A model generated the notes under the pieces. That model made no database searches and was not told where the DNA came from. It was given only the letters and a program-made list of their open reading frames with translations. The position numbers were made by a program, and so were the translations under genes. Below, in pieces: positions 4,304-12,350 of a stretch of DNA of 64,000 bases (position 1 is the stretch's first letter; every line of letters begins with the position of its first letter). Origin of the DNA: Escherichia coli (lineage in GTDB: Bacteria; Pseudomonadota; Gammaproteobacteria; Enterobacterales; Enterobacteriaceae); the NCBI RefSeq assembly GCF_044324875.1, contig NZ_CP172185.1; one strand, written 5' to 3'.

Positions 4304-5491
4304 TTATACAATTCGCGCAAAACCGGCGTCCAGATCGGCAATCAGATCGTCGACATCTTCCAGACCAATATGCAGGCGAATCAAGGTCCCGCTAAAATCG
4401 ATCTCGCCTTGCGGGCGAATGGCGGCGATATGTTCTGGTTGATTTGCCAGGATCAACGATTCATAACCGCCCCACGAGTAGGCCATGCTGAATAAACTGA
4501 AGTTATCCAGATAGTTCGCCAGCTCTTCATCATTGAGTTTTTTCTTAAGCACAAAGGAAAATAGCCCGCTGCTACCTGTAAAGTCTCGTTTCCAGAATTC
4601 GTGGCCTTTACTGCCAGGCAGAGCAGGGTGGTTAACTCGCGCTACTTGCGGATGTTCTGCCAGCCATTCAGCCACTTTCAGACTGCTTTCATGATGTTGA
4701 CGCAGGCGAACACCCAAAGTGCGCAGGCCACGGCTGGTTATATAGGCGGTATCGGCATCGACCATCTGGCCCATCAGATAGGCATTCTCCCGCAGCTGCT
4801 CCCAGCAACGGGCATTGCACACGGCAGTGCCAATCATCGCATCTGAATGCCCCACCAGATATTTGGTAGCGGCCTGAATGGAAACATCGATGCCAAAATC
4901 CAGCGCCTTAAACAGCACACCGGCCGCCCAGGTGTTATCGATCATAATGATGGCATCTGGCACCACATTGCGCACGGCGGCAACAATCGCCGGAACGTCG
5001 TGGACTTCCATGGTGATGGAGCCTGGGGATTCCAGAAACACGATTTTAGTGTTTGGCTGCACATGTTTAACGATATCTGCGCCAATCAGCGGATCAAACC
5101 ACGATGTCGTTACGCCCAGTTTGCTGAGGATTTTGCTACAGAAATCCTGACTCGGTTCATAGGCAGTGTTGGTCATTAACACATGATCGCCCTGTTCGAC
5201 AAAAGCAAGAATAGAATTAGCAACCGCCGCTGCCCCGCAGGGGAACAGCACGCAGCCTGCGCCACCTTCCAGTTCACACATCGCTTGTTGTAAGGAAAAA
5301 TGGGTTAACGTTCCGCGCCGCCCATAGAACAACTCGCCATTGGCGCGATTGCGTGTCGCGTGCTTTTTGGCTTCCACACTGTCAAAGACCAGCGAAGAAG
5401 CGCGCTGAATCACGCTATTTACCGCGCCGAGAGTGTATTTTTTGCTGCGTCCTGCATTCACCAGTTGAGTATCAAGCTTTTTGTCCGCCAT
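4304..5491 (-). CDS. metC: cystathionine beta-lyase (PLP-dependent)
   Basis: ORF 4304..5626; known N-terminus [20 protein letters not shown] is codon 46 of the track ORF, giving 395 aa. Confidence 0.93.
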
Positions 5492-5509
5492 GTCGGGATT
5501 CCTGTTTTT

Positions 5510-5525
5510 ATACGTCTGGATGTCT
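5510..5525. promoter_or_regulatory. candidate MetJ operator (tandem met-box-like octamers ATACGTCT GGATGTCT) just upstream of metC
   Basis: Two adjacent 8-mers resembling the AGACGTCT met box, 19-34 bp upstream of the metC ATG; metC is a MetJ regulon member. Confidence 0.3.
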
Positions 5526-5742
5526 AAACTAGCATGAATATTCTCGGGCGCATCCTGAAGAATTGGCATAAAGCAGAAAATTTTCGCAAATGGCGTGCTG
5601 GTGACTTTTTTACTGCGTAAACGCAAGGAAAAGAAAGCAAAGGTACGGCAGTATGCAAATAGTAATGAGAACGACTATCAATTCGACGTCGTTTTGATAT
5701 TATTATGCGCAGATTTTGTGACTTGCGTCCTGGAGATACACA

Positions 5743-6477
5743 GTGGGTAATAATTTAATGCAGACGGACCTTTCCGTCTGGGGTATGTATCAGCACGCCG
5801 ATATTGTCGTTAAGTGCGTGATGATTGGGCTTATTTTGGCCTCCGTAGTCACCTGGGCAATCTTCTTCAGTAAGAGCGTAGAGTTCTTCACTCAGAAGCG
5901 TCGCCTTAAGCGCGAGCAGCAACTGCTGGCTGAAGCGCGTTCCTTAAACCAGGCCAACGATATCGCCGCTGATTTTGGTAGCAAAAGCTTAAGCCTGCAT
6001 TTGCTCAATGAAGCGCAGAATGAGCTGGAACTGTCAGAAGGCAGCGACGATAACGAAGGTATTAAAGAACGTACCAGCTTCCGTCTGGAGCGTCGGGTCG
6101 CCGCAGTAGGTCGTCAAATGGGCCGCGGTAACGGTTATCTGGCAACCATCGGCGCGATTTCGCCGTTCGTTGGTCTGTTTGGTACGGTCTGGGGCATCAT
6201 GAACAGCTTTATTGGTATCGCGCAAACGCAGACCACTAACCTGGCAGTCGTTGCGCCGGGTATTGCAGAAGCTCTGTTAGCAACGGCAATCGGCCTCGTG
6301 GCAGCGATTCCGGCGGTCGTTATCTATAACGTATTTGCACGTCAGATTGGCGGCTTTAAAGCGATGCTGGGTGATGTCGCAGCGCAGGTATTGTTGCTGC
6401 AAAGCCGTGACCTGGATCTGGAAGCCAGCGCCGCTGCGCATCCGGTTCGTGTCGCACAAAAATTACGCGCAGGATAA
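5743..6477 (+). CDS. exbB: TonB-system energising protein ExbB
   Basis: 244-aa ORF MGNNLMQTDLSVWGMYQHADIVVKCVM..., GTG start as printed; matches ExbB. Confidence 0.95.
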   Translation: MGNNLMQTDLSVWGMYQHADIVVKCVMIGLILASVVTWAIFFSKSVEFFTQKRRLKREQQLLAEARSLNQANDIAADFGSKSLSLHLLNEAQNELELSEGSDDNEGIKERTSFRLERRVAAVGRQMGRGNGYLATIGAISPFVGLFGTVWGIMNSFIGIAQTQTTNLAVVAPGIAEALLATAIGLVAAIPAVVIYNVFARQIGGFKAMLGDVAAQVLLLQSRDLDLEASAAAHPVRVAQKLRAG

Positions 6478-6483
6478 TGTCCG

Positions 6484-6909
6484 ATGGCAATGCATCTTAA
6501 CGAAAACCTCGACGATAACGGCGAAATGCATGATATCAACGTGACGCCGTTTATCGACGTGATGTTGGTTTTGCTGATTATCTTTATGGTGGCGGCACCG
6601 TTAGCGACGGTAGATGTGAAGGTGAATTTGCCTGCTTCTACCAGCACGCCGCAGCCGCGCCCGGAAAAACCGGTTTATCTGTCGGTGAAAGCAGACAACT
6701 CGATGTTTATTGGTAACGATCCGGTCACCGATGAAACAATGATTACGGCGTTGAATGCGTTAACCGAAGGCAAGAAAGACACCACCATCTTCTTCCGAGC
6801 GGACAAAACCGTCGATTACGAGACGTTGATGAAGGTAATGGATACGCTGCATCAGGCGGGTTACCTGAAAATAGGTCTGGTCGGCGAAGAAACTGCGAAA
6901 GCGAAATAA
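6484..6909 (+). CDS. exbD: TonB-system protein ExbD
   Basis: 141-aa ORF MAMHLNENLDDNGEMHDINVTPFIDVMLVLLIIFM...; 6 nt after exbB stop. Confidence 0.95.
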   Translation: MAMHLNENLDDNGEMHDINVTPFIDVMLVLLIIFMVAAPLATVDVKVNLPASTSTPQPRPEKPVYLSVKADNSMFIGNDPVTDETMITALNALTEGKKDTTIFFRADKTVDYETLMKVMDTLHQAGYLKIGLVGEETAKAK

Positions 6910-11043: not shown

Positions 11044-11231
11044 TCAAACATACGTATTATCTTGCTTTAATTAATTACACTAATGCTTCTTCCCTTCGTT
11101 TTAGCGCCCCGCCGCAGTATCATGATATCGATAACCATAATAAATGTGTGGTAAATGGCGCATCGATCGCATTATTGATTTTGCGATTGAGGCAAAATAT
11201 ATGCCAGGTCTTCGCAACGGAATAACTATAA
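11044..11231 (+). promoter_or_regulatory. hyb operon promoter/control region
   Basis: 188-bp AT-rich non-coding interval immediately upstream of hybO; inference from position only. Confidence 0.4.
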
Positions 11232-12350
11232 ATGACTGGAGATAACACCCTCATCCATTCTCACGGCATTAACCGTCGTGATTTCATGAAGCTTTGTGCA
11301 GCATTAGCCGCCACCATGGGGTTAAGTAGCAAAGCCGCTGCAGAGATGGCCGAATCGGTTACTAACCCGCAGCGTCCGCCAGTTATCTGGATTGGCGCGC
11401 AGGAGTGCACCGGTTGTACGGAATCTCTGCTTCGTGCAACGCATCCAACGGTAGAAAACCTCGTGCTGGAGACTATCTCTCTGGAATATCACGAAGTGCT
11501 TTCCGCCGCCTTCGGTCATCAGGTCGAAGAGAACAAACATAACGCTCTCGAGAAGTACAAAGGGCAGTATGTGTTAGTGGTGGATGGTTCCATCCCATTA
11601 AAAGATAATGGTATTTATTGCATGGTTGCCGGTGAGCCGATTGTGGATCACATCCGCAAAGCGGCGGAAGGCGCAGCAGCCATTATCGCTATCGGTTCCT
11701 GCTCTGCGTGGGGCGGTGTTGCCGCGGCTGGGGTTAACCCAACTGGCGCGGTCAGTCTGCAAGAAGTTCTGCCAGGCAAAACTGTAATCAACATTCCTGG
11801 CTGCCCGCCGAACCCGCACAACTTCCTCGCGACCGTTGCGCACATCATCACTTACGGCAAACCACCGAAGCTGGATGATAAAAACCGTCCGACTTTCGCC
11901 TACGGTCGTCTGATTCACGAACACTGTGAACGTCGCCCGCACTTCGATGCTGGTCGCTTTGCGAAAGAGTTCGGCGACGAAGGCCACCGTGAAGGCTGGT
12001 GCCTGTACCACCTCGGCTGTAAAGGGCCAGAAACTTACGGCAACTGCTCAACGCTGCAATTCTGCGACGTTGGCGGCGTGTGGCCGGTGGCGATTGGTCA
12101 CCCGTGCTATGGCTGTAACGAAGAAGGTATCGGCTTCCATAAAGGCATCCATCAGCTTGCCAACGTCGAAAACCAGACTCCGCGTTCACAGAAACCGGAC
12201 GTTAACGCTAAAGAAGGCGGCAACGTCTCTGCAGGCGCTATTGGTTTGCTCGGCGGTGTGGTTGGGCTGGTTGCCGGTGTCAGCGTGATGGCGGTGCGTG
12301 AACTGGGTCGTCAGCAAAAGAAAGATAACGCTGACTCACGGGGAGAATAA
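11232..12350 (+). CDS. hybO: hydrogenase 2 small subunit (Tat-exported)
   Basis: 372-aa ORF; twin-arginine signal RRDFMK near N-terminus; Cys-rich FeS cluster motifs. Confidence 0.95.

Follow-up and report, generated by a model that had tools for sequence, protein, structure and literature searches.

How two genes of unrelated regulons are controlled from one short shared intergenic region is the question raised by the metC-exbB locus of Escherichia coli. In the window, which is the whole 64-kb stretch of DNA analysed here, metC (cystathionine beta-lyase) occupies 4304-5491 on the minus strand and exbB, with a GTG start, occupies 5743-6477 on the plus strand. Both are taken from the list of open reading frames; the former is 99% identical at the protein level to K-12 b3008, the latter corresponds to b3006 in the K-12 annotation, and exbD (6484-6909; b3005 in that annotation) lies downstream of exbB. 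The gap between the two divergent genes spans 251 bp (5492-5742), and is bounded by the start codon of metC (CAT at 5489-5491 on the minus strand) and by the GTG of exbB at 5743. An initial annotation of the sequence had delimited this divergent region at 5492-5742, and the open reading frames and the comparison with K-12 show the limits to be exact. The gap very probably contains two independent repressor operators, one for each divergent promoter, and both promoters are apparently of the extended -10 type.

Of 5,426 complete genomes of E. coli, 5,422 are matched at an identity of at least 95% by a 451-base query around the site, with metC and exbB annotated. Between positions 5440 and 5800, the window differs from K-12 MG1655 at a single base, 5544, which is T here and G in K-12; the sequence is therefore essentially that of K-12, and published work on that strain is directly applicable. 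The species representative of E. coli carries an A at this base, which falls outside both operators, in the spacer of the predicted metC promoter (about -25), and the T is shared with one of the 5,422 complete genomes, the sediment isolate NZ_LR778147.1. The product name given to exbB (5743-6477) in the 10 RefSeq genomes listed, 'tol-pal system-associated acyl-CoA thioesterase', misfits ExbB and looks like an annotation naming error; the K-12 record names the product 'Ton complex subunit ExbB'.

The octamers at 5510-5525 are the already published MetJ operator of metC. The box closer to the start codon of metC, ATACGTCT (5510-5517, minus strand), reads AGACGTAT on the metC strand and agrees with the consensus AGACGTCT at seven of eight positions, while the box nearest the promoter, GGATGTCT (5518-5525, minus strand), reads AGACATCC and agrees at six of eight. 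The two abut directly, with zero gap, and are separated by 18 nt from the downstream ATG of metC, at the predicted promoter of a methionine gene. Scoring was based on the half-site matrix printed by Augustus and Spicer in 2011 (PMC3228920, Table 3), with the thresholds of the same study, namely at least 3.145 bits for a box (a quarter of the consensus score of 12.58 bits) and at least 12.58 bits for an array. The boxes score 9.96 and 8.96 bits, respectively, and their total of 18.92 bits ranks first among 63,985 positions of the window, in which no other tandem pair exceeds the published thresholds. The same value is listed for K-12 metC in Table S1 of that study, which records two boxes, 18.92 bits, a distance of 18 nt from the start codon and the sequence agacatccagacgtat. 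The resemblance to tandem MetJ boxes proposed for about 5510-5525 is thus borne out to the base, and position weight matrix scoring, suggested as a check, places the pair above the published limits. When the 16-mer consensus is used with up to three mismatches, the window contains one match against 0.10 expected. MetJ binds a fragment with the metC operator in gel shift experiments, and lacZ reporter assays on the known E. coli genes gave ratios below 0.25 for most repressed genes (PMC3228920). In E. coli, metC is also derepressed by a metJ mutation, a finding of Kang 2011 that is cited in PMC12188003. A bioRxiv paper on MetJ sequestration was considered and is without bearing on the metC operator.

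On the other side of the gap, the AT-rich dyad is the already published Fur site of exbB. The site cluster spans 5652-5682 (no strand assigned), and its strongest 19-bp site, AATGAGAACGACTATCAAT, lies at 5664-5682 with its centre at 5673, or -70 from the exbB GTG; the classical 19-mer register corresponds to 5661-5679. The string quoted in the initial annotation as Fur-like, AATAGTAATGAGAACGACTATC, is found at 5658-5679, within the range of about 5657-5684 given for it, and is displaced upstream by 3-6 nt from the single-dimer register with the best score, at 5664-5682. For scoring, a symmetrised 19-bp matrix was constructed from 16 other K-12 sites, with exbB left out and the site centres taken from Table 4 of PMC2189734. 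The matrix gives 18.96 bits at 5673, which ranks first among 63,982 positions and exceeds the next match in the window by 5 bits, and the leave-one-out matrix assigns 2.88 bits to a weaker site centred at 5661. For the exbB promoter, Chen et al. in 2007 reported a Fur site of 19.1 bits, placed at -70 relative to the start codon and positive in gel shift, as part of a three-site cluster of 31 bp (PMC2189734). After conversion between K-12 coordinate versions, the published -70 corresponds to window position 5673, and the two scores are in close agreement. Only the size of the cluster and the coordinate of its strongest site are given in that study, so its placement at 5652-5682 is our own. A Fur site proposed earlier for exbD showed no binding in the same work.

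Genome-wide data place the same gap under Fur control. A ChIP-exo peak of Fur is present in the metC-exbB gap of both MG1655 and W3110 (PMC10164565 supplement), the core Fur regulon of nine strains includes exbB and exbD (PMC10164565), and exbBD is a direct member of the Fur regulon in CFT073 as well as K-12 (PMC7157518). In MG1655, the ChIP-exo interval falls at about 5636-5658, with its centre about 26 bp upstream of 5673, and shares with the cluster no more than its 5' edge; the offset may be a limit of peak-calling resolution. With a first rank by matrix, a positive gel shift and a ChIP-exo peak, the loose likeness to the Fur consensus noticed upstream of exbB proves to be a published operator.

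Consensus matching by itself is less telling. The classical 19-bp Fur consensus GATAATGATAATCATTATC is matched at 13 of 19 positions at 5661-5679, and the 7-1-7 consensus TGATAATnATTATCA at 11 of 14 positions at 5666-5680 (TGAGAACgACTATCA). When the 7-1-7 consensus TGATAATNATTATCA is searched with up to three mismatches, the window yields five matches against 2.13 expected, which alone is not significant. The reservation that the matches are imperfect was therefore justified for the Fur consensus, but it does not hold otherwise in view of the matrix scores, the conservation and the published binding. A rival reading would make both resemblances products of chance, without any part in regulation, in a gap that is AT-rich; the five matches to the 7-1-7 consensus against 2.13 expected and a blank promoter scan speak for it. 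Its probability is negligible, and it is already refuted: by matrix score, each site has rank 1 in the window, and in 300 dinucleotide-preserving shuffles of the whole window the MetJ score was attained once and the Fur score seven times. Gel shift, ChIP-exo and reporter data have been published besides (PMC3228920, PMC2189734, PMC10164565), and both sites recur across species despite freely diverging flanks.

This recurrence was examined in a scan of representative genomes with ExbB, which provided 80 loci from Escherichia to Pseudomonas, 67 of them in Enterobacterales, and in an alignment (A2) that covers 32 species, Escherichia through Erwinia. The divergent neighbour of exbB is metC in 55 of the 80 loci. 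The Fur 19-mer is present in all 67 Enterobacterales loci, scores at least 19 bits in 65 and reaches 23.3 bits in Yersinia and Providencia. In alignment A2 the site appears as a near-invariant footprint, AATAnTAATGAkAACnACTATCAATTC (5658-5684, no strand assigned), in which 24 of 27 columns are invariant while the flanking sequence diverges freely. MetJ arrays of at least 12.58 bits are found in 30 of the 55 loci with adjacent metC, comprising 27 of the aligned Enterobacteriaceae type and three of Serratia; among loci with adjacent metC, no passing array is found in Erwinia, Pantoea, Pectobacterium, Dickeya, Yersinia or the Providencia group. These proportions agree with the published survey, in which metC boxes are reported for 81 of 119 Enterobacterales and are also stated to occur in only about half (PMC3228920). 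To judge from this distribution, the MetJ boxes of metC are a narrower acquisition, mostly of one family, and the Fur box of exbB is a feature of the whole order.

The promoters on which these operators would act were predicted from conserved extended -10 motifs, because a simple scan for sigma-70 promoters and terminators across 5400-5850 returned no -35/-10 pair and no terminator. A blank scan is compatible with extended -10 promoters and is not positive support for them. The putative extended -10 element of metC, TGcTAGTTT on the minus strand (5526-5534), is conserved in the alignment as TGnTAGTyT, in which the positions of TG, TA and T vary little or not at all among the 32 aligned species. 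The candidate element of exbB, TGaTATTAT on the plus strand (5695-5703), is conserved as TGnTATnAT and follows the Fur 19-mer by 12 nt in nearly all of the 67 loci of Enterobacterales; the few exceptions differ at one base or have a gap of 13-15 nt. No measured transcription start of metC or exbB was found in the literature that could be searched. An Rfam scan of both strands from 5000 to 6200, with E values up to 1, returned no RNA family, and an explanation by a riboswitch or small RNA was dropped on this ground.

A mechanism can be proposed for each side, built on operators whose identity, scores, conservation, binding by MetJ and Fur and regulon membership are documented here or in the cited papers. 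The MetJ boxes begin right after the -10 hexamer of metC and, directly following TGnTAGTyT (5534-5526), would span the predicted metC start at about 5517-5521 on the minus strand. With ample S-adenosylmethionine, the boxes would be occupied cooperatively by two MetJ dimers that block RNA polymerase, so that metC would be repressed when methionine is plentiful. From TGaTATTAT at 5695-5703, the exbB start is predicted at about 5710-5711, and relative to it the Fur site would extend from about -47 to -29. The site ends 12 nt before TGnTATnAT and would thus cover the -35 and spacer region, given this promoter assignment. The strongest Fur dimer site (5664-5682), together with weaker overlapping sites upstream, would lie over the exbB promoter, and when iron is plentiful, Fe2+-Fur on the -35 and spacer region would repress exbBD. 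Since the exact -10 elements and transcription starts are predictions, occlusion of the promoters as the mode of repression is a prediction as well. The regulation known from textbooks is confirmed at this locus, in which methionine biosynthesis through metC is turned off by MetJ with S-adenosylmethionine, and energy transduction for iron uptake by ExbBD is turned off by Fur with iron.

The operator of metC resembles the other operators of the met regulon in most respects. As in the operators of metA, metB/metJ, metF, metE/metR, metK, metNIQ and mmuP, it consists of abutting 8-bp repeats of AGACGTCT that are detected by the same matrix, and its boxes overlap the promoter of a methionine gene. 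The use of S-adenosylmethionine as the corepressor in operator binding by MetJ is established (PMC3228920). It differs in size, as its two boxes are the minimum for repression while other operators have three to four (PMC3228920, Table S1), in its average of 9.46 bits per box, which is above that of most met operators, and in its restriction to Enterobacteriaceae and some Serratia.

The Fur site of exbB likewise shares its architecture with the Fur boxes of fepA-fes, fhuA, cirA, fecI, tonB, entC and other iron-uptake promoters of E. coli, which are 19-bp inverted repeats of 9-1-9 form. Weaker overlapping sites at offsets of 6 or 12 bp, a position over the promoter of an iron-uptake operon and repression by Fe2+-Fur are further features in common with such boxes (PMC2189734). 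Its score is unusual, in that 18.96 bits lies below all 16 training sites (20.3-29.2 bits), and so are its three departures from the 7-1-7 consensus, which are themselves conserved, and its conservation, which is deeper than that of its flanks and extends across the whole order.

These conserved departures bear on what maintains the footprint. Some invariant bases that depart from the Fur consensus, for example the C in ACTATC, are accounted for neither by Fur affinity nor by a -35 match, and might reflect a second constraint. On another reading, the 27-bp block would be kept mainly as an element of the exbB promoter, through contacts at -35 or farther upstream, or because a second protein binds there, with Fur in a secondary role. 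Bases off the Fur consensus are indeed invariant across the 67 loci (ACTATC rather than ATTATC), the block overlaps the position expected for a -35 element, 17 bp upstream of the conserved -10, and the invariance reaches a few bases past the 19-mer on both sides. The hexamer at the expected -35 position, however, is CTATCA, which agrees with TTGACA at only three of six positions, and the base of the Fur consensus would improve this match, so the invariant C is not explained by -35 function. The extra upstream bases fit the overlapping Fur sites of PMC2189734, and both Fur binding and Fur-dependent expression have been demonstrated experimentally (PMC2189734, PMC10164565, PMC7157518). A primary role other than Fur binding is accordingly judged quite unlikely, and the footprint is best read as the Fur operator of exbB.

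A shared gap also invites the proposal that the circuits cross, with MetJ controlling exbB in addition, or Fur metC. Besides the single 251-bp gap that metC and exbB have in common, a fragment with the upstream region of exbB is shifted by MetJ, but in vivo MetJ does not repress a reporter on exbB (both PMC3228920). Conversely, metC is absent from all supplementary tables of the Fur pan-regulon (PMC10164565), and each of the two sites lies on its own promoter. At one locus, that of Escherichia sp. ESNIH1 (L010), the Fur box is kept with exbB even though metC is not adjacent. Regulation of either gene by the repressor of the other is for these reasons very improbable; the MetJ and Fur operators are about 140 bp apart, and there is no cross-regulation. 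Within positions 1-1300 of L010, a same-strand open reading frame other than metC lies upstream of exbB, and the breakpoint is bordered by the metC promoter on one side and on the other by a conserved block that corresponds to 5605-5631 in the window.

Two unrelated circuits are thus accommodated within one 251-bp gap. Like fepA-fes and metE-metR, metC and exbB are back-to-back genes with their operators in one short gap. Unlike those pairs, in which a single shared site serves both genes, metC and exbB belong to unrelated regulons with one operator per gene. Beyond the published picture, the analysis adds a reproduction of the published scores by an independent matrix and an exbB Fur box conserved across the order at a near-constant distance from the extended -10 element.

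A further conserved segment in the gap, TTTTTTACTGCGTAAACGCAAGGAAA (5605-5631), is maintained in Enterobacteriaceae, where its spacing to the Fur box is constant in the 32-species alignment. Pentamers with a 10-bp period (GTAAA at 5617, GGAAA at 5627 and GCAAA at 5637-5641, with N5 spacers) occur in this part of the gap. The block is kept with exbB in L010, is deleted in Pluralibacter gergoviae (L028) and is absent in other families. It is tentatively considered, at rather low probability, as a third control element for exbB, possibly a site for a response regulator of the OmpR/CpxR type; a site of this kind would link envelope stress to expression of the TonB system. A CpxR matrix screen of 2022 contains GGAAAagaaaGCAAA (5627-5641) as a weak candidate with a score of 9.98. 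CpxR itself is not supported as the regulator acting on the block: in the 2022 CpxR study metC was also down upon nlpE overexpression in a cpxR deletion strain, which leaves dependence on CpxR unsupported.

Nearer metC, most Enterobacteriaceae have a conserved A/T-rich block, AGAAAATTTT (5573-5585), which from its position some 55-65 nt upstream of the putative start of metC could be an upstream promoter element.

The distance between the Fur box and exbB varies in the wider set of loci. The Fur box and extended -10 element precede the segment of ExbB alignable to the E. coli protein by 280-590 nt in Pectobacterium, Dickeya, Rahnella, Serratia, Yersinia, Providencia, Xenorhabdus and Photorhabdus (loci L034-L036, L038, L042, L047, L050-L054, L056, L057 and L059-L068). 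The distance fits a long N-terminal extension of the ExbB proteins of these genera, and such an extension is described for ExbB of Serratia (PMC9008036). In Pseudomonas (L069-L081), a related and weaker Fur-like 19-mer, AACAAGAATTACTTGCAAT, and variants of it score 10.8-16.7 bits and are conserved at 350-530 nt upstream of the exbB match.

Elsewhere in the window, secondary matches to the Fur matrix of 12-14 bits are centred at 11136, 11610, 34228, 40482 and 45392. An MG1655 ChIP-exo peak of Fur assigned to hybO (PMC10164565) maps to about 11229-11241, near two of these matches.
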